DNA from: an uncultured SAR86 cluster bacterium
Lineage (GTDB): Bacteria; Pseudomonadota; Gammaproteobacteria; Magnimaribacterales; D2472
Direction of reading: 5' to 3'
Assembly: GCA_902515455.1 (NCBI GenBank)
Contig: CABXUO010000003.1
Span: 1 to 59,777 of the forward strand
DNA length: 59,777 nt
The notes below the pieces were generated by a model, which had not been told where the DNA came from, ran no database searches, and saw nothing but the letters and a program-made list of their open reading frames with translations. Positions within the stretch are counted from its first letter, which is position 1; the number at the start of each line of letters is the position of its first letter. A program made the translations under genes and the position numbers. Positions 19,634 through 48,083 of the stretch are shown one piece after another.

Positions 19634-19709
19634 GCGGGAATAGCTCAGTTGGTAGAGCGCAACCTTGCCAAGGTTGAGGTCGCCAGTTCGAACCTGGTTT
19701 CCCGCTCCA
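19634..19709 (+). tRNA. tRNA-Gly (anticodon GCC)
   Basis: A manual cloverleaf fits: acceptor GCGGGAA/TTCCCGC, anticodon loop TTGCCAA, T-loop TTCGAAC, and an encoded CCA. Confidence 0.95.
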
Positions 19710-23991: not shown

Positions 23992-26163
23992 ATGTTAGGT
24001 AAATATACGCAAATTGGATCATTGTCAGTCTCAGGAGATTTGGAAACATTTCTTAGAGCAGAAGTGTTGCCTGGTTTAAATATAACTGAGGATCACTTTT
24101 GGAGTAGCTTAGAGAACATTATTAATAAATTTAGCCCTAAAAATAAAGCATTGCTGGAAATCAGAGAGATAATGCAAAAGCAAATTGATTCTTGGCACTT
24201 AGATAATCCTGGAGGTGAAAAAAACTTATCTAAATACAAAAATTTTTTAAAAGAAATAGGTTACTTGTCAGAGGAGAAAGAAGCTTTTACTATCACCACT
24301 GAAAATGTTGACCCAGAGATCGCATTTATTGCAGGACCTCAATTAGTAGTTCCAGTTATGAATGCAAGATTTGCCTTAAATGCTGCTAATGCCAGATGGG
24401 GCAGTCTTTACGATGCTTTATATGGCACCGATATGATCTCAGAGGATGATGGAGCGTCAAGAGCAGGCGCTTATAATCCAATTCGTGGAGACAAAGTTAT
24501 AGAATTTGCAAAGAATTTTTTGGATAAAAATTTTTCATTAAATGATGCCAGTTTTTTTGACGTAATTTCTTTTTCAATAAAGGATGGTCAATTAGAGTTT
24601 GGGTTAGAGAATGGACAAACTTCAACTCTTCATAACAGCAATCAATTTCAGGGTTTTCAAGGGTCACCAAATCTTCCTTCTAGCATCTTGCTCAAAAACA
24701 ACAACCTTCATGCTGAAATTCAAATTGATCCTGAACATTCTGTGGGCGCTACTGATCCCGCTGGAATCAAAGATGTTTTACTAGAATCTGCAGTTACAAC
24801 GATTCAAGACTGCGAGGATTCGGTTGCGGCGGTTGATGGAGAAGACAAAGTAACTATTTATAGAAATTGGCTTGGTTTAATGAAAGGAACACTTCAGGAA
24901 ACATTTATAAAAGGAGGAAGTGAAATGACTCGTTCTCTTAATCCTGATAGAGATTATATTGCACCAGATGGTTCCGGCTTCAAATTGCCAGGTAGAAGCC
25001 TCATGCTTGTAAGAAATGTTGGACATCTCATGACTAATCCAGCAATTCTTGATAAGGATGGTAATGAGGTGCCTGAGGGGATAATGGATGCAATGTTCAC
25101 AATTTGTATTGCAATGCATGACATCAATGGTAACGGAGAGTTAAAAAATTCCAGAACCGGCAGTATCTATATTGTGAAACCAAAAATGCATGGACCTGAT
25201 GAGGTTCAATTTACTTGTGATTTATTTTCAGCAGTTGAAAAAGCCCTTAATCTTGATCAGTTGACTGCCAAAGTAGGCATTATGGACGAAGAAAGAAGAA
25301 CTACGGTAAATCTTAAAGAATGTATTCGTGTTGCCAAGGAAAGAGTAATTTTTATTAACACTGGATTTTTAGATAGAACTGGAGATGAAATTCATACCAG
25401 TATGGAGGCTGGTCCCATGATTCCCAAGGCAGACATGAAACAGCAGCCTTGGATTCTTGCTTATGAAGACTGGAATGTAGATTCTGGTCTTGAAACTGGA
25501 TTTAAAGGCAACGCACAAATTGGTAAAGGTATGTGGCCAATGCCAGACGAAATGTTAAACATGTATGAAACCAAATCCATGCATCCAGAATCTGGAGCAA
25601 ACTGCGCTTGGGTACCGTCACCGACTGGTGCTACTCTCCATGCAATGCATTATCATCAAATCTTGGTTTCTAACAGACAGCAAAATATCCTTCAGCGACC
25701 TAAGGCCAGTCTCGATGATATTCTTACCATTCCATTAATGGAAAATCCAGAAGGGCTATCAGCCGAAGATATTCAAAAAGAATTAGATAATAATGCTCAG
25801 GGTATTCTTGGTTATGTTGTTAGATGGGTTGATCAAGGAGTGGGTTGCTCTAAGGTTCCTGATATTAATAACGTTGGGCTCATGGAGGATAGAGCTACAT
25901 GTAGAATCTCCAGTCAACATATTGCAAATTGGTTGCATCATTCTATTTGTTCAAAAGACCAAGTTCTCGATACTATGAAAAGAATGGCTCTTGTTGTTGA
26001 TCAGCAGAATTCTGGAGATCCATCATATCTTCCAATGGGCCCATCATATGATGGCATTGCCTTTAAAGCGGCATGCAATCTTGCTATAGATGGAAGAAGT
26101 CAGCCCAGCGGCTATACTGAACCAATATTGCATGAAATGAGGCTAAAATTTAAAGCTCAATGA
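23992..26163 (+). CDS. glcB: Malate synthase G
   Basis: 723 aa. The length and conserved blocks ([33 protein letters not shown] and [10 protein letters not shown]) are typical of GlcB. Confidence 0.92.
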
Positions 26164-26444
26164 AAGCATACTGGATCACAAGATGTCACGTACATAATCC
26201 AGCTGAGTATGATGAATATATCAAGCTTGCGGGACCTGCTATCAATCAATATGGTGGTACCTTCCTAGTTCGTGGCGGTGATCAAATTGAACTAGAAGGA
26301 GGTCCATATGAAAGGACTGTTTTAGTTGAGTTTAATTCGATGCATGAAGCCAAGGTATGTTATGAATCAAAGGAGTATCAAGAGGCTTTGAAGTACTCGG
26401 TAAATTCTTCCAATCGTCATGTTGTTTTAGTCGAAGGATTGTGA
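26160..26444 (+). CDS. DUF1330-family protein
   Basis: 94 aa starting [30 protein letters not shown], typical of DUF1330. An ATGA overlap links it to glcB. Confidence 0.7.
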
Positions 26445-26450
26445 AGAGTC

Positions 26451-28499
26451 ATGAAAATCCCTACAAATAAAAATATCGCCAAAACTCTTTTATTTTTTAT
26501 AGTTTTTTTGAATTTAAATATATCTTCAGAAGAATTATCAGATGCTGAAAGTTTTTTTAGCCGCGAGGCCCCAACCTATCCAACAGCGGATAACTTGCTC
26601 GGGTGGATAGATTCAAGAAACATTACCTCCCTAAATGGTGAGTGGACTTACATAATTGATCCAATGAATAATGGTTTACCAGAATCCTCTTTTTTTGGTG
26701 GATTTCCAAAAAATAAAACTCAAAAAACTGGAATGGAGCTAATTGAATACAATTTTGAGGATGCAGAAAAAATTCAAATACCAGGCGCTTGGAATGCTCA
26801 AGATGAAAAATTATTATTTTACAGAGGACCAGTTTGGCTGTTTAAAAAATTTAATCATTCATCAAAACAAAATGTTTTAACCCATCTGTATATTGAAGGC
26901 AGTAACTTTACAACAAAGGTATTTGTGAATGGGTCTATTGTAGGTGAATTTGAGGGTGGTTATGTTCCTTTTAACTTTGATATTTCCCAGTTTCTAAATG
27001 ATGGCGAGAACATTTTGTTAGTCCAAACAGATAATACTCTCAATGAGTCCACTGTTCCCACTCACAAGACAGATTGGTGGCCTTGGGGAGGTATTGTTGG
27101 TGACGTATATCTTGTTCAGACTCCAAATGAATATATCAGAAACGCATATTTACAACTGAACCCAGATGATTTTTCTCAAGCTATCTTTAAATTACAAATG
27201 GCAACTAAATCATCTCAACAAAAAGTAATTTTGGAGATTCCTGAACTTAATTACAAAGAAGAGTTTGGAACAGATTCTTCAGGATTAATTCAAGAAAATA
27301 TCATCATTACTCCAGAGCTTTGGTCGCCCTCAAATCCTAAGCTCTATAAAGTGATTATTTCATCACAAAATGAGTCAATATCCGATGAAATAGGTTTTCG
27401 TTCCATTAAAACAAAGGGCCAAAAGATTTTTTTAAATGATAATGAGATAAAGTTTAAGGGAATTGCTATGCACTCTGAGCCTATCGGTATGCCAGGACCA
27501 GCTTTCTCAAAAGAACATTTTAAAAAATTGCTCTCCACAGCTGCGGATTTAAATATTAATTTTATCAGAGCTGCGCATTATCCATATACCCGACATTTAG
27601 CAAAGGTTGCGGATCAAATCGGGTTAATGGTTTGGGAAGAGATTCCTGTGTATTGGAATATTGATTGGAAAAATCCCGTTACGTTGAATATAGCAAAAGA
27701 TCAGATTAATAGATTAGTTAAAAGAGATCACAATCGGGCATCTGTTGTAGTTTGGTCAGTAGCTAATGAAACTCCTTTTTCAATACCGAGAATGACATTT
27801 TTAAATACCTTATTATCTGAAATTAACCATCATGATTCATCTCGATTAACCACGGCTGCTCTTCTTTCAGGTAATGAAGAGCAATTTAGATCTTTGGTAA
27901 TTGTTTTGGCATTACATGGCGTTAAATCTCAATGGGTTAATTCAAGAGAAAAAATGATATTTAAATCAATCTTAGATAAGGCAAATATACCGATCGACTC
28001 AAAGTTAAGTTTTTCTATCTCAATTGATGACCCCCTTGGTAAAAATGTTGATTTGATTTCTTACAATGAGTACTTTGGTTGGTACTACGTTACATTTTTT
28101 ACTGAGCAAATGATGATTCCAGAGGGAACTCTTAGAAGATTAATGTTTGAAGTCATGCCAGAGATAAAAATTAGTTCTTCATTCAATAAACCAATTCATA
28201 TTTCAGAATTCGGTGCTGGCGCTAAGTATGGAAATCATACTGACAAAATATGGTCGGAGGGATATCAAGCTAAGGTATATTCAGGCCAATTAGAAATGCT
28301 TTCTAGAAATCCTCAGGTTCAAGGAATTAGCCCCTGGGTTCTCAAAGATTTTAGAGCTATGTTGAGACCGTTGCCAGGTATTCAGGATTTTTATAACAGA
28401 AAAGGTTTAATTGATGAAAACGGAAATAAGAAAGAAGCTTTCAAAGTTTTGGCTGATTTTTATAAAAATCAATGGGATGAAAATTTAATACAAAATTAA
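26451..28499 (+). CDS. Glycoside hydrolase family 2 protein, secreted
   Basis: 682 aa with a signal peptide and GH2 sugar-binding, Ig-like and TIM-barrel domains. The acid/base region is VVWSVANE. Confidence 0.8.
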   Translation: MKIPTNKNIAKTLLFFIVFLNLNISSEELSDAESFFSREAPTYPTADNLLGWIDSRNITSLNGEWTYIIDPMNNGLPESSFFGGFPKNKTQKTGMELIEYNFEDAEKIQIPGAWNAQDEKLLFYRGPVWLFKKFNHSSKQNVLTHLYIEGSNFTTKVFVNGSIVGEFEGGYVPFNFDISQFLNDGENILLVQTDNTLNESTVPTHKTDWWPWGGIVGDVYLVQTPNEYIRNAYLQLNPDDFSQAIFKLQMATKSSQQKVILEIPELNYKEEFGTDSSGLIQENIIITPELWSPSNPKLYKVIISSQNESISDEIGFRSIKTKGQKIFLNDNEIKFKGIAMHSEPIGMPGPAFSKEHFKKLLSTAADLNINFIRAAHYPYTRHLAKVADQIGLMVWEEIPVYWNIDWKNPVTLNIAKDQINRLVKRDHNRASVVVWSVANETPFSIPRMTFLNTLLSEINHHDSSRLTTAALLSGNEEQFRSLVIVLALHGVKSQWVNSREKMIFKSILDKANIPIDSKLSFSISIDDPLGKNVDLISYNEYFGWYYVTFFTEQMMIPEGTLRRLMFEVMPEIKISSSFNKPIHISEFGAGAKYGNHTDKIWSEGYQAKVYSGQLEMLSRNPQVQGISPWVLKDFRAMLRPLPGIQDFYNRKGLIDENGNKKEAFKVLADFYKNQWDENLIQN

Positions 28500-28522
28500 T
28501 TATATTTTTTTTACAAAAAGTA

Positions 28523-28550
28523 TTGACTCTATTAACTATAGGCGTATATT
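28523..28550 (+). promoter_or_regulatory. Near-consensus sigma70 promoter of RNA copy 1
   Basis: TTGACT (28523..28528), a 16-nt spacer and TATATT (28545..28550). Both hexamers are conserved in copy 2, while the spacer differs at 3 positions. Confidence 0.7.
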
Positions 28551-28556
28551 TAATAG

Positions 28557-28775
28557 ACCAACTTGGACTGACCTACAAACAACTGCAGACGGGAGTAGGA
28601 GAGAAAGAGGAGGAAGAGACGAAGGGCGAAAGCGTTACTAAGAGTCGACGATAAAAAAGAGCTTAGTAGCCCACCAAGGAGGAGAGAGAAGGCCTCTAAG
28701 GAGCTAAAGAGATTCTCACTTTAGACCCCTTCCAATCTCGAATTGAAAAGACAGAGCTTAGCTCTGTTTTTTTTT
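28557..28775 (+). ncRNA. Candidate novel purine/GGA-rich non-coding RNA, copy 1 (about 220 nt)
   Basis: It runs from the predicted TSS about 7 nt after the -10 to the terminator T-run. Neither strand has an ATG/GTG/TTG ORF. It has 7 GGA motifs, and 92 of 120 nt at 28591..28710 are purines. A second copy is identical over the last 195 nt of the repeat. Confidence 0.65.
28751..28775 (+). terminator. Intrinsic terminator of RNA copy 1
   Basis: ACAGAGC stem, TTA loop, GCTCTGT stem, followed by a T-run that makes nine consecutive T with the last stem base. Confidence 0.85.
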
Positions 28776-28807
28776 GCTTATAATTTATTACTTATTGAAA
28801 AAAGTTC

Positions 28808-29650
28808 ATGCATCGGAATAAAACAGCATTAATTGTTGAGGGTGGAGGAAGCAGGGGTGTTTTTTCTTTTGGTGTCATTGATTCATTTATCAAAGCTTCT
28901 TTCAATCCATTCAACATGCATTTCGGAGTATCTAATGGAGCAGTTGTGCAGCTATGGTATTTATTAAAAGTATCAGATTACAACCTAGATAAAATGTTAT
29001 TTTCTGCATCAAAAAAGTATGTTAGGTATTCAAATATTCTTTTTAACAAAAGCATTATGAATTTTGAGAAACTCTACCAAGATGCTAATAAAGTTTTTCC
29101 AATTGATTTTGATCGCTTGCAAAGAAATTTAGATGGAAAAAATTTTTATGTTGTAGTTTCTGATGGTGAAACAGCAAAATCTGAATATATTGAGCTATCT
29201 AGAGAAAATTATATAAATGAAATGCTTGCTACTGGATCTCTACCTGTTCTAATGAAAAATCCAATAATACTTAATAATAAAAGAAAATTTGATGGAGGAA
29301 TTACTGATCCACTACCAGTAAAAAAAGCCTACGAGATGGGAGCTCGAGATATAACCCTTATTAGAACTTATGAAGAAACTTTTATAAGAAAAACTAAGTT
29401 TGAAAATTACATAGCTGCGCTTGCAACAAGATCATACCCAAATATTTCGCGAGCTTTAATCTATAATACCAAAACATATAATTCTGCACTCGAGTTTATT
29501 AAAAATCCTCCAAGTGATTGCAATATTACACAAATTTGTCCCCCGTATCGATTAAAGACTAAGCGAGCTACGACTAATCATTCAACAATGAAAGCAGATT
29601 ATTTGCTTGGTACTCAAATTGGCCAACGATTTCTTAAGAAATTTTTATAA
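28808..29650 (+). CDS. Patatin-like phospholipase
   Basis: 280 aa with the oxyanion motif GGGSRG, nucleophile GVSNGA (GxSxG) and catalytic Asp motif DGGITDP. Confidence 0.85.
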   Translation: MHRNKTALIVEGGGSRGVFSFGVIDSFIKASFNPFNMHFGVSNGAVVQLWYLLKVSDYNLDKMLFSASKKYVRYSNILFNKSIMNFEKLYQDANKVFPIDFDRLQRNLDGKNFYVVVSDGETAKSEYIELSRENYINEMLATGSLPVLMKNPIILNNKRKFDGGITDPLPVKKAYEMGARDITLIRTYEETFIRKTKFENYIAALATRSYPNISRALIYNTKTYNSALEFIKNPPSDCNITQICPPYRLKTKRATTNHSTMKADYLLGTQIGQRFLKKFL

Positions 29651-29790
29651 TCAAATCAAACCTGATTGATGTTTAATTAAAGTATGCAGATGTTATGCAT
29701 TCCGATGAAATTTTTAAATAGAAATTTTTTATCTAACTAACTCATATCCAGTTATTTTTTTAAATAGTTATATTTTTTTTATTATAGGTG

Positions 29791-29818
29791 TTGACTCTAT
29801 TTTCTAGAGGCGTATATT
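29791..29818 (+). promoter_or_regulatory. Near-consensus sigma70 promoter of RNA copy 2
   Basis: TTGACT (29791..29796), a 16-nt spacer and TATATT (29813..29818). Confidence 0.7.
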
Positions 29819-29824
29819 TAATAG

Positions 29825-30043
29825 ACCAACTCAGACTGACCTACAAGCAACTGCAGACGGGAGTAGGAGAGAAAGAGGAGGAAGAGACGAAGGGCGAAAG
29901 CGTTACTAAGAGTCGACGATAAAAAAGAGCTTAGTAGCCCACCAAGGAGGAGAGAGAAGGCCTCTAAGGAGCTAAAGAGATTCTCACTTTAGACCCCTTC
30001 CAATCTCGAATTGAAAAGACAGAGCTTAGCTCTGTTTTTTTTT
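29825..30043 (+). ncRNA. Candidate novel purine/GGA-rich non-coding RNA, copy 2
   Basis: It has the same architecture as copy 1. 29851..30045 is identical to 28583..28777. Confidence 0.65.
30019..30043 (+). terminator. Intrinsic terminator of RNA copy 2
   Basis: The hairpin and T-run are identical to those at 28751..28775. Confidence 0.85.
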
Positions 30044-30076
30044 GCCTTTATCACTAACTTTAATGACTATTACGCT

Positions 30077-30703
30077 ATGCTCAAAGAGCTACTTGAAAAT
30101 ACTATATTGCTATTTGTTGCTGTTGATCCCATTGCATTAATTCCCATTTTTGCAAGTCTCACAAAAGGATTTAATAAAAGCGATATAAAAAAAATTTATA
30201 TACAAGCAACCATCGTTGCATTTTTTGTACTTGCTATATTTTATCTTTTAGGTACATCAGTATTAGACATTATGGGGATTTCAATGAGCTCCTTCAAAAT
30301 AATTGGCGGCTTATTTTTAATTGCTATTGCATTTCAAATGGTATTAGAGCAAAGACAATCAAGAAGAGAAAATACTGCTGAAGTTGCATTAGATGATGTA
30401 TCAATTCAGTCTATAGCGATATTTCCCTTAGCCATTCCGCTGATAGCTGGACCTGGAGCAATGACTACAGCCCTTCTTATTGCTGAGTCAAATGAAAGTA
30501 ATTCCATTGAAATTTTAATAAATTTTATTCCCATTTTTATAATTATTATTATTGCTGCATTATCTATGTGGCTTTCTGCAAATCTATCTAAGAGAGTGGG
30601 GCCAACTATTATCATTGTTGTTGAAAAGATCTTTGGGATATTGTTGGGAGCTTTAGCAATAGAATTTGTTGTATCAGGAATAAGAGAGTCATTTAATTTA
30701 TAA
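30077..30703 (+). CDS. MarC-family (UPF0056) integral membrane protein
   Basis: MLKELLENTILLFVAVDPIALIPIF.. is typical of the MarC family, with six hydrophobic segments. The ORF-track start at 30011 reads through the RNA terminator, so I reject it in favour of the ATG at 30077. Confidence 0.8.
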   Translation: MLKELLENTILLFVAVDPIALIPIFASLTKGFNKSDIKKIYIQATIVAFFVLAIFYLLGTSVLDIMGISMSSFKIIGGLFLIAIAFQMVLEQRQSRRENTAEVALDDVSIQSIAIFPLAIPLIAGPGAMTTALLIAESNESNSIEILINFIPIFIIIIIAALSMWLSANLSKRVGPTIIIVVEKIFGILLGALAIEFVVSGIRESFNL

Positions 30704-30783
30704 TTTCTTTTTAGATTTTCTTACAATTAATTTTATTTCAACGATAATATCTTCTTAAATCATCTCAGGAGTATATTCAACAA

Positions 30784-32349
30784 ATGCTTTTTAATAATTT
30801 AGATTTGTTTATTGTTGGAATTTATTGTGTTGGAATCATAGCTATTGCTCAATACGTCTCTAAGTCTAAACAGGGTCATGAGAAAACTGCAGAGGATTAT
30901 TTCTTAGCAGGCAGATCACTTCCTTGGTGGGCAATAGGAGCCTCTTTAATTGCTGCAAATATTTCTGCAGAACAAATTATTGGTATGTCAGGACAGGGAT
31001 TTGTGGTTGGGATGGCAATAGCCACTTATGAACTTACAGCGGCAATTGCTTTAATTGTGATGGCAAAGTATTTTTTACCACTTTTTTTAGAGAAGCAAAT
31101 TTATACTATGCCTCAATTTCTTGAGCATCGATTTGATAACAGGGTTAGCCTCGTGTTGTCTTTCTTTTGGCTAGCCGTCTATGTATTTATAAATCTGACC
31201 AGTGTTTTATGGTTAGGGTCTTTAGCAATTAACTCATTAACAGGACTAGATCTATTCTATGGATTAGTACTCTTAGCGACCCTATCTTTAGCATATTCAT
31301 TGTGGGGCGGACTTAAAGCTGTGGCTATGACAGATATTATTCAAGTAATTTTATTAATTTTTGGTGGTCTATCTGTTTCTTATATAGCTTTAAATCAAAT
31401 TTCAGATGGCGCAGGAGTTTTCATTGGATTGAATCAAGTATATCAATCTCTTCCTGAAAAATTTGACATGATTTTATCTTTTGATCATCCTGCATACAAA
31501 GATCTTCCTGGTGTCTGGGTTTTGATTGGAGGCTTATGGATAGCACATTTTGCATACTGGGGATTTAATCAATATATTACTCAAAGAGCGCTGGGTGCTA
31601 AATCTTTGCCAGAAGCTCAAAAAGGAGTTATGTTTGCAGCTTATTTGAAGCTCTTGATGCCATTTGTTGTTGTTCTTCCAGGGATTTGTGCTGCAATTAT
31701 TTATCCTGAGCTTGAAAAGTCTGACCAAGCATATCCAATGATGATGGCATTACTTCCAAACGGTTTATTGGGACTAACTTTTGCAGCTCTTGTTGCTGCC
31801 ATTGTTTCCTCACTTGCATCAATGACTAATAGCATTAGCACAATTTTTACAATGGATATTTATAGAAGTTTTGCAAAATCAAAACCATCTCAACAAAGAT
31901 TAGTGACAGTTGGAAGGAATATTGCTTGGATCGCATTAGTTATAGCTGTCATTTGTGCGCAGCCACTTCTTGGAAGCATGGACTCTGCATTTCAATATAT
32001 ACAAAATTTCACTGGATTTTTCACACCAGGAATTTTAGTAATATTTTTAGTTGCTCTATTTTGGAAAAAAGCTACCACTCTTAGTGTTTTAGTTGCAGCA
32101 ATTATGTCCTTAATTTTATCTTTGGTAATTTTCCTTGTTTTTCCAGAATATCCTTTTATTCATAGAATGGGAGTCGTATTTCTAGTTTCAGGCCTTGGAT
32201 GTTACTTTACCGCGTTAGTTCAAGGATACTCTAATCAACCTAAAGCAATTGACTTAGTGAATATAAACTTTAAAACAGAGTTGTCATTTAATATAAATAC
32301 CGCAATTATCTTTTTGATTTTATTCATAACTTATTTTTTACTTTGGTAA
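30784..32349 (+). CDS. Sodium:solute symporter (SSS family, SGLT-like sugar transporter)
   Basis: 521 aa and polytopic, with the motif GRSLPWWAIGASLIAANISAEQIIGMSG. It is next to glk. Confidence 0.85.
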   Translation: MLFNNLDLFIVGIYCVGIIAIAQYVSKSKQGHEKTAEDYFLAGRSLPWWAIGASLIAANISAEQIIGMSGQGFVVGMAIATYELTAAIALIVMAKYFLPLFLEKQIYTMPQFLEHRFDNRVSLVLSFFWLAVYVFINLTSVLWLGSLAINSLTGLDLFYGLVLLATLSLAYSLWGGLKAVAMTDIIQVILLIFGGLSVSYIALNQISDGAGVFIGLNQVYQSLPEKFDMILSFDHPAYKDLPGVWVLIGGLWIAHFAYWGFNQYITQRALGAKSLPEAQKGVMFAAYLKLLMPFVVVLPGICAAIIYPELEKSDQAYPMMMALLPNGLLGLTFAALVAAIVSSLASMTNSISTIFTMDIYRSFAKSKPSQQRLVTVGRNIAWIALVIAVICAQPLLGSMDSAFQYIQNFTGFFTPGILVIFLVALFWKKATTLSVLVAAIMSLILSLVIFLVFPEYPFIHRMGVVFLVSGLGCYFTALVQGYSNQPKAIDLVNINFKTELSFNINTAIIFLILFITYFLLW

Positions 32350-33287
32350 TGAATTCCCAAGATAGTTTTTCTGACAAAAAAGTTTTACTTATTGATATAG
32401 GTGGAACTAATATAAGAACAGCTACAGCCAAAATTGGAAGTAATGAGATAAATAATGCTTCTAAGCAAAATTTAGATTGTTTAGATTCATTCGATCAGAT
32501 TATTCAAAACCTTTTAAGCAAAGATCAAAACATAAGACATATAGTTTTTTCTGTTGCCGGCCCAAAGCTCCATCAATCTATCTCAATGACGAATAGAGAT
32601 TTTGAAATAGATGAAAAGATTATATTGAAAAAATTTAATTTAGATTCTTGTCATATTCTTAATGATTGGGAATCCATTGGCTATGGATTATCTCTTTTTA
32701 ACGCTAATGAAATGAGCTTCATAAATAAATGTGATGGATTTAATCACACATCATTAGTTATTGGCCCAGGTACAGGCCTGGGGGCAGCTCTAGTTATTGA
32801 AAATAAAATTGTACTTCCTACAGAGATTGGAAACAGCTCATTAATTCTTCCAAAATTATTTGAAGATTTTGAACCCGAAGTTATTGAAAATTTTAATATT
32901 ATTGAGAATATTATATCCGGAGGGGGGCTCAAAAAAATATATGAAATTTTCTCTAACCAAGAAAAGTCACCTGAAGAAATAGTATCAAGCTTTAATAATG
33001 ATGAATCCTCACAAAAAGCCATAAATTTCTTTCTCAATTCATTTTCTCAAATATTGTCTGAACTTGCCTTGGCCTATATGCCTGGAAATGGAGTATTCAT
33101 CGCCGGAGGTTTAATGCGATCAATTAATCAATTTATAGATAATGAGATTTTCATGAAAAATTTTTTGACGAACAGAAAATCAATGCATGCGAATATTTTG
33201 TCGCAAATGCCGATAGCCATTATCAATCAAGAAATGACTTGTTTGCATGGAAGTTTAAATTTCATTAATAAAATTAGTAAAACATAA
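32349..33287 (+). CDS. glk: Glucokinase
   Basis: LLIDIGGTNIR ATP-binding motif, with size and pattern typical of bacterial Glk. The ATG at 32349 overlaps the symporter stop (TAATG); the track start at 32343 is a TTG. Confidence 0.8.
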   Translation: MNSQDSFSDKKVLLIDIGGTNIRTATAKIGSNEINNASKQNLDCLDSFDQIIQNLLSKDQNIRHIVFSVAGPKLHQSISMTNRDFEIDEKIILKKFNLDSCHILNDWESIGYGLSLFNANEMSFINKCDGFNHTSLVIGPGTGLGAALVIENKIVLPTEIGNSSLILPKLFEDFEPEVIENFNIIENIISGGGLKKIYEIFSNQEKSPEEIVSSFNNDESSQKAINFFLNSFSQILSELALAYMPGNGVFIAGGLMRSINQFIDNEIFMKNFLTNRKSMHANILSQMPIAIINQEMTCLHGSLNFINKISKT

Positions 33288-33294
33288 TTAAAAA

Positions 33295-33936
33295 TTGAAT
33301 AACTCTGCTTCAGAAAAGCTATTTAAATCAATCACAAAATCATTAGATAAAGCGATTGCGCTGAATGGAAAAGCTTCGCTAGTTGTATGTGGTGGAAATA
33401 GCCCTTTATCAATTTATCAAAAATTAAGTCGTGCAGATTTAGACTGGAATAAAGTATCTATCTACTTGGGAGATGATAGATTAGTCCCCTCAGATCACAT
33501 TGATTCAAATGAAAATCTTTTAAGGAAGAATCTTTTAATAAATAATGCTAAGCGGGCTAAATTTTATCCATTAGTTCAGCCAAGAATTAATATTAAAGAT
33601 GTAACACTTCCCTTTGATATAGTTTTACTCGGATTAGGTATTGATGGCCATTTTGCATCACTTTTCCCGGACCAAGTTAAACTGAGCAGTGCTTTAGGTA
33701 TTAACGCTGATCCTGATTTTATATGTTCAGAGACCCCTCAAGGATCTCCAAGCCATAAAAGAATTTCAATGAATATTGCATTACTTCTCAATACAAAACG
33801 ATGTATCTTGCTTGTAACAAATTCTGACAAAAGATTGGTTCTTGAAAAAGCATCCACGAACAATAAAATGCCATTACACTTTCTTATAAATCAAGATAAG
33901 ACAAAACTTGAATTCTCAGATATAGATTTTCAATAA
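33295..33936 (+). CDS. pgl: 6-phosphogluconolactonase
   Basis: 213 aa with GLGIDGHFASLFP, characteristic of the Pgl/NagB superfamily lactonases. Confidence 0.8.
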   Translation: MNNSASEKLFKSITKSLDKAIALNGKASLVVCGGNSPLSIYQKLSRADLDWNKVSIYLGDDRLVPSDHIDSNENLLRKNLLINNAKRAKFYPLVQPRINIKDVTLPFDIVLLGLGIDGHFASLFPDQVKLSSALGINADPDFICSETPQGSPSHKRISMNIALLLNTKRCILLVTNSDKRLVLEKASTNNKMPLHFLINQDKTKLEFSDIDFQ

Positions 33937-33945
33937 GGAATAAGA

Positions 33946-36378
33946 ATGAAAAAACTTTTTTTAATAATTTTATTTTCAAATATTTCATTATTATCAGCTC
34001 AAGTAGACTGGAGTAGATCAAATGCTTGTGAATATACAAATTTTGATAATGATTTTTTGATTGAGCAACTAATCAAAGCAATGTCGATAGAGGATAAAGT
34101 TGGACAAATTATTCAAGGCGACTTGGACTTTGTTACTCCAGCAGACGTTAAAAAATACAGACTTGGATCAGTTTTGAATGGAGGAAACACTTCACCTAAT
34201 GGAGATAAATATAGTTCTGCAGAAGACTGGAAGAACTTAAGTAAAGACTTTTATGAAGCTTCTCCAATCTTTAAAGGTATCCGAGTTCCTATTTTATGGG
34301 GAACTGATGCAGTTCATGGTCATAATAATGTTATTGGAGCAACATTATTTCCACACAATATAGGACTTGGTGCAACTCGTAATGAAGAGTTAATTAAAAA
34401 TATTGGTGAGGTGATTGCCTTAGAAGTTTTGTCAACCGGAGTTGCTTGGACATTTGCTCCTACAATCGCCGTTCCTCAAGATGATCGTTGGGGAAGAACT
34501 TACGAGGGATTTTCTGAGGATCCCATTTTAGTCTCTAAATTAGGCAAGGCTTTTGTGCTTGGGCTCCAAGGTGAGGGAGATATATTCCTTGACAAAAATC
34601 ATGTTATTGCAACCGCTAAGCATTTCATGGGTGATGGAGGTACTCTGAGAGGAGTTGATCAAGGCAATACCATAATTTCTGAGATTGGGTTACGAAAATT
34701 GCATGGATATCCATACTTTGATGCTCTAGATGCATGTGCTCAAACAGTTATGGCAAGCTTTAATTCCTGGAATGGTCAAAAGCTACATGGATATAAGGAG
34801 TTATTAACAGACATCTTGAAGGATGATATGCAATTTGATGGTTTTGTTGTAGGTGATTGGAATGGCCATGGCCAGGTAGATGACTGTTCAAATTCAAAAT
34901 GTGCTCAATCATTTAATGCTGGAGTTGATATGTTCATGGTTCCAGAGAACTGGAAAGACCTTTTGTTAAATACGATTCAGCAAGTTAAGACCGGTGAAAT
35001 ATCAGAGATCAGACTCGATGATGCAGTTAGAAGTATTTTAAAAGTTAAATCTAGGCTTGGTTTATTTGACGGAAGAGTCCCGCATGAATTTAAAGAAAAT
35101 TTTTTAGGTCACCCAAGACATATTGCTTTGGCTCGTCAGGCTGTAAGAGAATCCTTGGTTTTGTTGAAAAATAATAATAAATTTCTACCCATAGATCCTA
35201 GACAACATATTGGAGTTATTGGTCACGCCGCAAATAAAATTTCATCGCAAACAGGTGGCTGGACCATTACTTGGCAAGGAAGAGAAAATCTAAATGATGA
35301 TTTTATAAACACTAATACTATATATCAGGCTTTAGAGCAGACAATTTTATTATCAAATGGAACAATAGAGTTTTCTGAAAATGGTAAATTTGAAAAGAAT
35401 CCAGATGTTGTGATTGGTGTGTTTGGTGAGGAACCATATGCTGAAATGCTCGGTGATTTAAAAGATGTTTCTTTTGCTCCAACTGACCCAACATTTTTAT
35501 CATTGCTTAAATCAATCGATTCTCAAGGCATTCCAATTTTAAGTATTTTCTTGTCAGGCAGACCTTTAGAGGTAAATAAGTATATTAATGCATCTGATGC
35601 ATTTATAGCTTCTTGGTTACCAGGCACTGCTGTAGAAGGAATTGCTGACGTTATATTTAAAAAAAATAATAAAATAAATTATGATTTTTCAGGCAAACTT
35701 TCTTATTCATGGCCAAAATCTAGTGATCAAGCAGTATTAAATTACTTTGATGCTGAATATGATCCCTTATTTCCATTTGGATTTGGCCTTACATACGAAT
35801 CAAATTTTCAGCTTCAAAAAATTCAAACCGATGAGGTTGTTTCAAATATAGATTTGATTAATGTTTTTTTAGGTGCCGCATCAATCCCCGCAAAAGAGTT
35901 TGTTATTTCAAATAAAAATCCCGAATTTGTTTTAAAAGATAATTACTTTAGCAATGACGAACAAATTAAAGTTACAAGATTTGATTATCAGCGACAAGAT
36001 GATGCAAAAAATATTGTTTTTTCAAGTAGCAAATTGTTACAAGCGTTTGGAATCTCAGCAGAGTTACCCATCAATCTCTCTAATATGAGTTCTCCTTTTT
36101 ATGAGATTATTATGAGGGTAAACACTTTATCAAATCCACAATTATATTTTAGCGTTGGCTGCGGTAGTAATTGTATTGGGTCTATTGCACTGCCTACAAA
36201 ATCCATGGCGAATTGGTCAAAAATTAATATTCCTCTTTCATGCCTTGAAAAAGATGGGTTAGATAAATCCAAAATTCAATTAAGAGGACTTTTTTCAAGC
36301 AACGAAGCTATTAATTTTGATATTAATTCCATTATCATTCGAGATGGAGATGCTACGGGATCGATGTTGAGCTGCTAA
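33946..36378 (+). CDS. Glycoside hydrolase family 3 beta-glucosidase / exo-beta-glucanase, secreted
   Basis: 810 aa with a signal peptide, KHFMGDGGT and GFVVGDWNG (nucleophile Asp), plus an extra C-terminal domain. Confidence 0.88.
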   Translation: MKKLFLIILFSNISLLSAQVDWSRSNACEYTNFDNDFLIEQLIKAMSIEDKVGQIIQGDLDFVTPADVKKYRLGSVLNGGNTSPNGDKYSSAEDWKNLSKDFYEASPIFKGIRVPILWGTDAVHGHNNVIGATLFPHNIGLGATRNEELIKNIGEVIALEVLSTGVAWTFAPTIAVPQDDRWGRTYEGFSEDPILVSKLGKAFVLGLQGEGDIFLDKNHVIATAKHFMGDGGTLRGVDQGNTIISEIGLRKLHGYPYFDALDACAQTVMASFNSWNGQKLHGYKELLTDILKDDMQFDGFVVGDWNGHGQVDDCSNSKCAQSFNAGVDMFMVPENWKDLLLNTIQQVKTGEISEIRLDDAVRSILKVKSRLGLFDGRVPHEFKENFLGHPRHIALARQAVRESLVLLKNNNKFLPIDPRQHIGVIGHAANKISSQTGGWTITWQGRENLNDDFINTNTIYQALEQTILLSNGTIEFSENGKFEKNPDVVIGVFGEEPYAEMLGDLKDVSFAPTDPTFLSLLKSIDSQGIPILSIFLSGRPLEVNKYINASDAFIASWLPGTAVEGIADVIFKKNNKINYDFSGKLSYSWPKSSDQAVLNYFDAEYDPLFPFGFGLTYESNFQLQKIQTDEVVSNIDLINVFLGAASIPAKEFVISNKNPEFVLKDNYFSNDEQIKVTRFDYQRQDDAKNIVFSSSKLLQAFGISAELPINLSNMSSPFYEIIMRVNTLSNPQLYFSVGCGSNCIGSIALPTKSMANWSKINIPLSCLEKDGLDKSKIQLRGLFSSNEAINFDINSIIIRDGDATGSMLSC

Positions 36379-48008: not shown

Positions 48009-48083
48009 GCGGCATTAGTATAATGGCTAGTATATCTGCCTTCCAAGCAGATGGTCCGAGTTCGAATCTCGGATGCCGCACCA
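48009..48083 (+). tRNA. tRNA-Gly (anticodon UCC)
   Basis: A manual cloverleaf fits: acceptor GCGGCAT/ATGCCGC, anticodon stem TCTGC/GCAGA with loop CTTCCAA, T-arm CCGAG-TTCGAAT-CTCGG, and an encoded CCA. Confidence 0.93.

Follow-up and report, generated by a model that had tools for sequence, protein, structure and literature searches.

The 59,777-nt stretch analyzed here in full (contig CABXUO010000003.1 of assembly GCA_902515455.1, from an uncultured SAR86 cluster bacterium; hereafter the window, in forward-strand coordinates) carries at positions 28583–28710 a purine-rich interval that a first-pass annotation, made from the sequence alone, had singled out for an array of seven GGA motifs and two Shine–Dalgarno (SD) mimics, and to which it had assigned a possible role as a sponge for a CsrA/RsmA-type regulator or for ribosomes. 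Taking our best explanation as a whole, we consider it very probable that this interval is the central part of IMES-1 RNA (Rfam RF02034), a trans-encoded noncoding RNA (ncRNA) of about 210 nt. The Rfam scan recovered two copies on the + strand, which also holds the promoters, terminators, and structural elements given below: copy 1, full length, at 28562–28751, enclosing the purine-rich interval (192.0 bits against a gathering score of 81, E = 1.9e-43, model positions 1–191 of 191), and copy 2 at 29830–30019 (192.2 bits against the same gathering score, again over model positions 1–191 of 191). No other family came close to the IMES-1 score in the scan of the interval. Both copies lie within a 289-nt direct repeat at a spacing of 1,268 nt and differ at only 3 positions over 212 nt (28564, 28565, and 28579); the array of copy 2 (29851–29978) is, as had been noted, identical to that at 28583–28710. 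IMES-1 is an already known family, of which the copies in the window are ordinary members with no structural difference, sharing with the family as originally described the six-helix architecture, the marine origin, and the extreme abundance in metatranscriptomes.

Each copy is flanked by its own signals for transcription. Upstream of copy 1, a promoter at 28495–28550 combines an A/T-rich UP-like element, a −35 hexamer TTGACT (28523–28528), a 16-nt spacer, and a −10 hexamer TATATT (28545–28550), with 10 of the 12 positions matching the sigma-70-type consensus, and transcription is inferred from these elements to start at about 28557. The promoter of copy 2 (29763–29818) has the same −35 TTGACT (29791–29796) and −10 TATATT (29813–29818). 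A T-run/A-rich UP-like element, TTGAC(A) at −35, and TATATT or TAATAT at −10 recur in approximately 130 homologous upstream regions. This IMES-1 promoter, very strongly conserved across SAR86, resembles strong rRNA-type promoters. Downstream, an intrinsic terminator closes copy 1 at 28745–28773 with a 7-bp GC-rich stem (ACAGAGC/GCUCUGU) followed by a U-run, the stem being invariant in 68 homologues, and its counterpart in copy 2 lies at 30013–30041. A sub-threshold Rfam match to AgrB at 28700–28775 (30.7 bits against 40, E = 0.0018), overlapping helix 6 of the RNA and the terminator, probably owes its score to the terminator hairpin. Having a promoter and a terminator at each copy, IMES-1 is an independent gene and not a leader, and the reading of the array as part of a stand-alone, multi-copy ncRNA gene is borne out.

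Transcription of the two genes is visible in the sea. IMES-1 occurs in seawater metatranscriptomes of several studies, and in seawater metatranscriptomes only. In four of these, word depth reaches 1e5–7.6e5 over 28568–28768 and 29841–30041 compared with 0–5 on the flanking genes, assembled metatranscriptome contigs cover just the two RNA genes with a contrast of about five orders of magnitude, and a fall of the same size occurs at the terminator. IMES-1 hence reaches enormous transcript levels in seawater, which the strong A/T-rich promoter fits. In the description by Weinberg et al. (2009), the RNA is reportedly exceptionally abundant, above ribosomes in some samples, and it is said to have been first described without a cultivated host; abundant marine small RNAs were also reported in 2009, by Shi et al. 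Position 28669, in the 3′ strand of helix 4, carries most of its depth in all four metatranscriptomes as A and not as the G of the window, which would turn a G·U pair with 28635 into the A-U pair of most homologues; the G allele of the window is a minority variant in the sea. Adapter remnants and many chimeric joints also abut 28573–28577 and 29841–29845 in the metatranscriptome contigs, that is, the boundary between the 5′ strand and the loop of helix 2, and could reflect a 5′ end that is often used, processing of the RNA at this point, or an artifact of reverse transcription.

The distribution of the family was surveyed by scanning species-representative genomes with a three-block sequence pattern, none of whose blocks contains GGA, and by searching the returned loci with nhmmer. 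This yielded 91 IMES-1 copies, nearly all of them in records titled SAR86 cluster bacterium or uncultured Gammaproteobacteria, including the complete SAR86 genomes CP097973.1 and OX044367.1. The representative closest to the window is the single-cell genome AH-321-G13, at about 94–95% nucleotide identity. Two records titled SAR92/Porticoccaceae (HTCC2207), L010 and L095, also bear IMES-1, as do two titled Woeseiaceae, L079 and L090, the former of which has a SAR86-like GC content of 32% and may be mislabeled. Two copies are present in at least 20 assemblies, some pairs lying 1.1–3.4 kb apart and others hundreds of kilobases apart, and copies within a genome are usually identical. As a rule, IMES-1 is present as two copies that evolve in concert. 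Three members are divergent (L014, L019, and L091, at 103–112 bits); in two of them, L014 (2325–2904) and L091 (5427–6005), a tRNA gene is found about 300 nt away from IMES-1, which is not the case for the SAR86 copies. Pattern matches in two viral contigs (L001 and L002) and in unrelated phyla outside the Gammaproteobacteria showed no similarity to IMES-1 and were rejected as chance hits.

To characterize the fold, the Rfam consensus structure was mapped onto an alignment of 68 distinct homologues. In this alignment, the paired share of cells is 93.1%, compared with 79% for shuffles (0 of 500 as high) and 27–54% for controls with a slid structure, and 23 pairs show compensatory changes, with three to four covarying pairs in each of helices 2–6. 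Helix 2 (28572–28576 with 28595–28599) and its 18-nt conserved loop occupy 28572–28599, four of the five pairs having compensatory changes. There follow, at 28606–28620, the 3′ strand of a weak helix 1 (28606–28609) and the purine linker GAGGAAGAGAC, and then a multi-helix domain (28621–28732) closed by helix 3 (28621–28625 with 28728–28732). Within this domain lie helix 4 (28634–28642 with 28662–28670), helix 5 (28678–28682 with 28693–28697), in which 100% of cells are paired and four of five pairs carry compensatory changes, and helix 6 (28704–28709 with 28719–28724), the strands that join them (GAAAGCG, CCCACCAAG, and AAGGAG) being invariant. Folding of the single sequence recovered helices 2, 4, 5, and 6 and the terminator with a modest z of −2.1, for which reason we rely on covariation as the better evidence of structure. 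Overall, the IMES-1 fold consists of six helices backed by covariation and joined by invariant purine-rich single strands. Our recount gave exactly the composition reported earlier, 92 purines among the 120 nt at 28591–28710 and 37 among the 40 at 28591–28630; the former value is the maximum for any 120 nt of the 59.8-kb window (mean 61.3, standard deviation 6.8, z about 4.5), and the homologous region is 68–78% purine in the 68 homologues. The first-pass annotation had further expected many of its motifs to be single-stranded for want of pyrimidines to pair with. This stands for the segment as a whole, 72 of the 120 nt (61 of them purines) being unpaired, but not for most of the GGA motifs, four of the seven overlapping helix strands.

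Unexpectedly, the two large hairpin loops, those of helices 2 and 4, each contain a self-complementary hexamer, and these hexamers are the candidate sites at which separate copies of the RNA could meet. The first, CUGCAG (28583–28588, in the loop of helix 2), is invariant in 68 of 68 homologues, and in the divergent L014, L091, and L019 it is replaced by CUUAAG or CUAUAG, their second loop having GCUAGC or GCGC. The second, GUCGAC (28644–28649, in the loop of helix 4), varies more than any other part of its loop, which is otherwise invariant, and is nonetheless self-complementary in 67 of the 68 genome-derived homologues. The equivalent hexamers of copy 2 are at 29851–29856 and 29912–29917. 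Seven words were observed at the second site (GUCGAC, GUAUAC, GUUAAC, GUCGGC, GUCGAU, GUGCAU, and GUUGAC), four of which need G·U pairs, and a count of pairs at this site gave 99.8% pairing and 14 compensatory cells, a level attained by none of 500 shuffles. A metagenome scan, made with a pattern that had fixed flanks and a third base other than C, returned 86 matches, all 86 self-complementary (GUUGAC 41, GUAUAC 18, GUGCAU 14, and GUUAAC 13). On a neighbor-joining tree of 107 unique sequences, parsimony counts about 20 changes of word, with self-complementarity kept in 106 of the 107 and almost no change in the loop bases on either side. Single substitutions of GUCGAC were limited to the three that keep pairing through G·U, and the energies of the self-duplexes separate the observed words (−5.4 to −11.2 kcal/mol) from the unobserved single mutants (−1.4 to −3.7 kcal/mol).

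As four of the words need G·U pairs, this pattern points to pairing at the level of RNA rather than to a DNA palindrome. Neighboring nucleotides of a single chain cannot pair with each other, and the pattern is therefore most naturally read as a symmetric kissing loop between molecules. On the strength of this covariation, we give somewhat better than an even chance to the proposal that the hexamers evolve solely through self-complementary states and that the RNA pairs with its own copies by symmetric kissing loops, as a dimer or multimer. The larger proposal, that IMES-1, as one of the most abundant small RNAs of surface seawater, is a self-assembling RNA whose loop palindromes would build either a closed dimer or an RNA-only assembly of greater size in SAR86 cells, with the purine strands as quaternary glue or as a multivalent surface for a partner, falls in our estimation slightly below an even chance. 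According to this scheme, the loop hexamers CUGCAG and GUCGAC of separate IMES-1 copies would pair as symmetric kissing loops, and the conserved single-stranded purine blocks of the resulting abundant particle, AAGGAG included, could, on a weak inference, act as tertiary or quaternary glue or as a surface titrating a cellular partner.

Several known systems lend this scheme some context. In the OLE and GOLLD RNAs, adjacent loop nucleotides covary from one palindrome to another at the places where cryo-electron microscopy shows symmetric kissing loops between molecules (PMC12286853). Like IMES-1, OLE, GOLLD, and ROOL are bacterial ncRNAs found by a comparative approach that have loop palindromes with covarying adjacent nucleotides; they are, however, homo-oligomeric RNA-only complexes of 600–800 nt, whereas IMES-1 is about 200 nt long, is far more abundant, and has two such loops. 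The dimerization initiation site (DIS) of human immunodeficiency virus type 1 similarly has a self-complementary word of 6 nt in a hairpin loop with flanking purines, and its natural variants GCGCGC and GUGCAC stay palindromic, but it is a single site of a viral genomic RNA that serves genome packaging, so that the analogy holds for the mechanism only. With respect to abundance, a parallel is offered by 6S RNA, a bacterial structured RNA that likewise stands alone, reaches very high levels comparable to those of ribosomes, and acts stoichiometrically on a large cellular machine. It bears no similarity to IMES-1 in sequence or structure, and the interval gives no Rfam match to it.

A number of points weigh against this explanation as a whole. 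Judged by sequence, contact between two RNAs by kissing looks the same as the binding of a dimeric protein to a symmetric site. Within SAR86, CUGCAG does not vary, such that covariation at the first site comes down to three divergent sequences with two variant states, and the homologue L095 (CCCGGU) keeps only a 4-nt palindrome. The metagenome matches were drawn with fixed flanks, and the sequences share ancestry, which leaves a modest number of independent events. The depth on which the estimate of abundance is founded comes from assembled contigs and is a crude measure of expression, and the ends given for the RNA are predicted ones. Finally, no constant gene stands beside IMES-1 to indicate a partner, the neighbors varying by clade.

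Turning to the motifs that first drew attention to the locus, all seven GGA trinucleotides (28592, 28598, 28609, 28612, 28678, 28681, and 28700) and both SD-like heptamers, AAGGAGG (28676–28682) and TAAGGAG (28697–28703), are exactly where they had been placed, and neither heptamer is followed by ATG, GTG, or TTG 5–10 nt downstream. Their number, however, is what composition would provide: dinucleotide-preserving shuffles of 28583–28710 contain 5.8 ± 1.4 GGA against the 7 observed (P(≥7) = 0.31), and since composition alone predicts such a number, the count is no independent signal. AAGGAG is not enriched in the whole window either (34 found, 32 expected). The GGA array is, in other words, mainly a consequence of purine-rich composition.

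Its members nevertheless differ in how they are conserved. Four are part of helix strands and change along with their pairing partners: GGA 28598 in the 3′ strand of helix 2 (conserved in 21% of homologues), 28609 in the 3′ strand of the weak helix 1 (13%), and 28678 and 28681 in the 5′ strand of helix 5 (49% and 35%). The AAGGAGG mimic is paired and covarying (28678–28683), as it forms this same 5′ strand of helix 5. The other three are single-stranded and positionally conserved in SAR86 homologues, namely GGA 28592 at the 3′ end of the 18-nt loop of helix 2 (75%, plus 18% shifted by one base), GGA 28612 in the single-stranded linker AGGAAGAG (74%), and GGA 28700 in the unpaired AAGGAGC junction (28698–28704) between helices 5 and 6 (99%, 67 of 68); in copy 2, these correspond to 29860, 29880, and 29968. 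The divergent L014, L019, and L091 are without the first two sites and keep the junction motif alone, as AAGGAG in L014 and L091 and as AAGGGG in L019. Of all GGA or SD-like elements, the AAGGAG junction (28698–28703) is the only one that nearly every member of the family retains.

It is against this background that the proposed sponge has to be judged, in which exposed GGA motifs would sequester a translational regulator of the CsrA family, as CsrB, RsmY, and RsmZ do. CsrB, CsrC, RsmX, RsmY, and RsmZ are protein-sponge small RNAs, and IMES-1 resembles such Csr/Rsm RNAs in being abundant, trans-acting, and often multi-copy, in having a rho-independent terminator, and in carrying GGA in unpaired regions. 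Very high levels like those of IMES-1 are what a stoichiometric or titrating RNA would need, and among its three conserved single-stranded GGA two have an AAGGA context (28610–28614 and 28698–28702), while 28592 and 28612, 20 nt apart, could be reached by one CsrA dimer. A csrA gene in SAR86 is plausible as well, given that csrA is kept even in tiny gammaproteobacterial genomes such as that of Buchnera. The comparison with homologues nonetheless goes against a sponge. Conservation of the number and position of the GGA motifs, on which the first-pass annotation had made the model depend, does not hold: homologues have 2–9 GGA per RNA, four of the seven positions, all helical, are conserved in less than 50% of them, and only one GGA persists in divergent members, all of which weakens the model. 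Unlike Csr/Rsm RNAs, IMES-1 has one to three conserved GGA and none in a short hairpin loop like those of CsrB and RsmZ, and it combines a compact multi-helix fold with extensive invariant non-GGA sequence, the long blocks CAACUGCAGACG, GAAAGCG, CCCACCAAG, and AAUCUCAC being unnecessary for a GGA sponge.

Searches directed at the Csr/Rsm system point in the same direction. No Rfam family of the CsrB/CsrC/RsmX/RsmY/RsmZ/PrrB type matched at its gathering score or at E ≤ 10, and the GacA/UvrY box (TGTAAG-N6-CTTACA), typical of Csr/Rsm small RNAs though not universal among them, was found with up to three mismatches upstream of neither copy and is not among the conserved elements of the roughly 130 homologous upstream regions. 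For the regulator itself, tblastn with the CsrA proteins of E. coli, Pseudomonas, and Bacillus gave no match, neither in the window nor across some 0.8 Mb of IMES-1 loci from SAR86, a sample that says little about the genome as a whole. A protein search with E. coli CsrA returned enteric-type clusters only, and says little about taxon because CsrA is about 90% identical across gammaproteobacteria; one AT-rich-looking CsrA cluster, P0114, was set aside, its alaS-csrA-gshA context being that of another gammaproteobacterium. Full-text literature searches turned up nothing relevant on IMES-1, either in general or in SAR86, or on SAR86 CsrA. With no family match, a chance-level GGA count, no GacA box, and non-conserved motifs, the CsrA-sponge reading has partial support at most, does not pass those family tests that were run, and appears improbable to us. 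One to three conserved unpaired GGA, together with the abundance of the RNA, would be compatible with binding something.

The other target named at first pass, the ribosome, shifts the weight from the array to the junction. Here, the unpaired AAGGAG between helices 5 and 6 would pair with the 3′ end of 16S rRNA, and an abundant RNA of this kind would modulate the pool of free 30S subunits. Of the 68 homologues, 67 indeed have the hexamer at 28698–28703; the consensus structure leaves it unpaired, and no start codon comes after it. Moreover, genes of the window mostly go without a strong SD: upstream of the 48 open reading frames of at least 100 aa, AAGGAG occurs in 0 of 48 and a match of at least 5 nt in 8 of 48, a rough estimate, as the start codons are mechanical calls. 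Strong SD sequences being so few, the AAGGAG of IMES-1 would rank among the best anti-SD partners of the cell. Yet those statistics depend on the mechanical start-codon calls, the second mimic (AAGGAGG, 28676–28682) is a strand of a covarying helix, and L019 has AAGGGG at the junction. The proposal is built on one conserved AAGGAG. As this motif sits in a four-way junction together with other invariant strands, a role in tertiary structure is at least as likely, and titration of 30S subunits is in our view unlikely.

The palindromes themselves could also be recognized other than by RNA, either as DNA operators or restriction-like sites or as symmetric RNA sites for a dimeric protein. In their DNA form, CTGCAG, GTCGAC, GTTAAC, and GTATAC are perfect palindromes of the type that dimeric proteins commonly read. 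But GUUGAC, the commonest word in metagenomes, and GUCGGC, GUCGAU, and GUGCAU are self-complementary only with G·U and hence only as RNA; the sites lie inside a transcribed, structured RNA, in purine-flanked hairpin loops; and recognition by a protein would not tolerate the free swap of a central CG with UA, AU, or GC. We accordingly regard such a site as very unlikely. A small open reading frame (28523–28654, 43 aa; 29788–29922, 44 aa) or a leader or riboswitch for the patatin or MarC gene, readings that draw on the mechanical list of reading frames and on the position of the RNA upstream of same-strand genes in the window, were rejected as extremely improbable, considering that the supposed start codon, TTG or GTG, belongs to the −35 region of the promoter, that homologues have 1-nt indels at alignment columns 32, 44, and 61, that a strong terminator follows each RNA with the drop in RNA depth already described, and that the downstream genes differ among clades and are often on the opposite strand.

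Regarding the surroundings of the RNA pair, a patatin-like phospholipase gene (28808–29650, + strand; PF01734, PF19890) lies between both copies as a neighbor outside the RNA, with a GH2 glycosidase gene upstream of the pair and a gene for a MarC-family membrane protein downstream. These belong to a carbon-metabolism neighborhood (23992–36378) that also encodes malate synthase G, a DUF1330 protein, an Na+/solute symporter, glucokinase, a 6-phosphogluconolactonase-like protein, and a GH3 glycosidase. The patatin gene is a frequent but not universal neighbor of IMES-1: across loci, patatin, GH2, pyruvate kinase, KDPG aldolase, an OadB-like protein, and malate synthase were encountered, pyruvate kinase, KDPG aldolase, or the OadB-like protein being the neighbors in other SAR86 clades. 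Elsewhere in the window, two tRNA-Gly genes are found at 19634–19709 and 48009–48083 (anticodons GCC and UCC).

Overall, in the most likely picture, the IMES-1 of SAR86 is an extremely abundant, compactly folded, and probably self-associating ncRNA, and its conserved purine single strands, AAGGAGC especially, would be functional. IMES-1 has reportedly been puzzling since its description in 2009, where its function is said not to have been known. To this family, the present analysis adds a genomic home in SAR86 (complete genomes included) and in some SAR92-labeled genomes, a promoter, a two-copy organization, and the covariation of the loop palindromes. The presence of IMES-1 in defined SAR86 genomes means that its partners can be sought in known proteomes, and the SAR92 group, which has cultured members, could offer a tractable host for this RNA. 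The resemblance of both loops to symmetric kissing sites provides, in addition, a concrete hypothesis that is cheap to address in vitro and that, if true, would make IMES-1 a small, extremely abundant relative, in principle, of the OLE, GOLLD, and ROOL RNA-only complexes.

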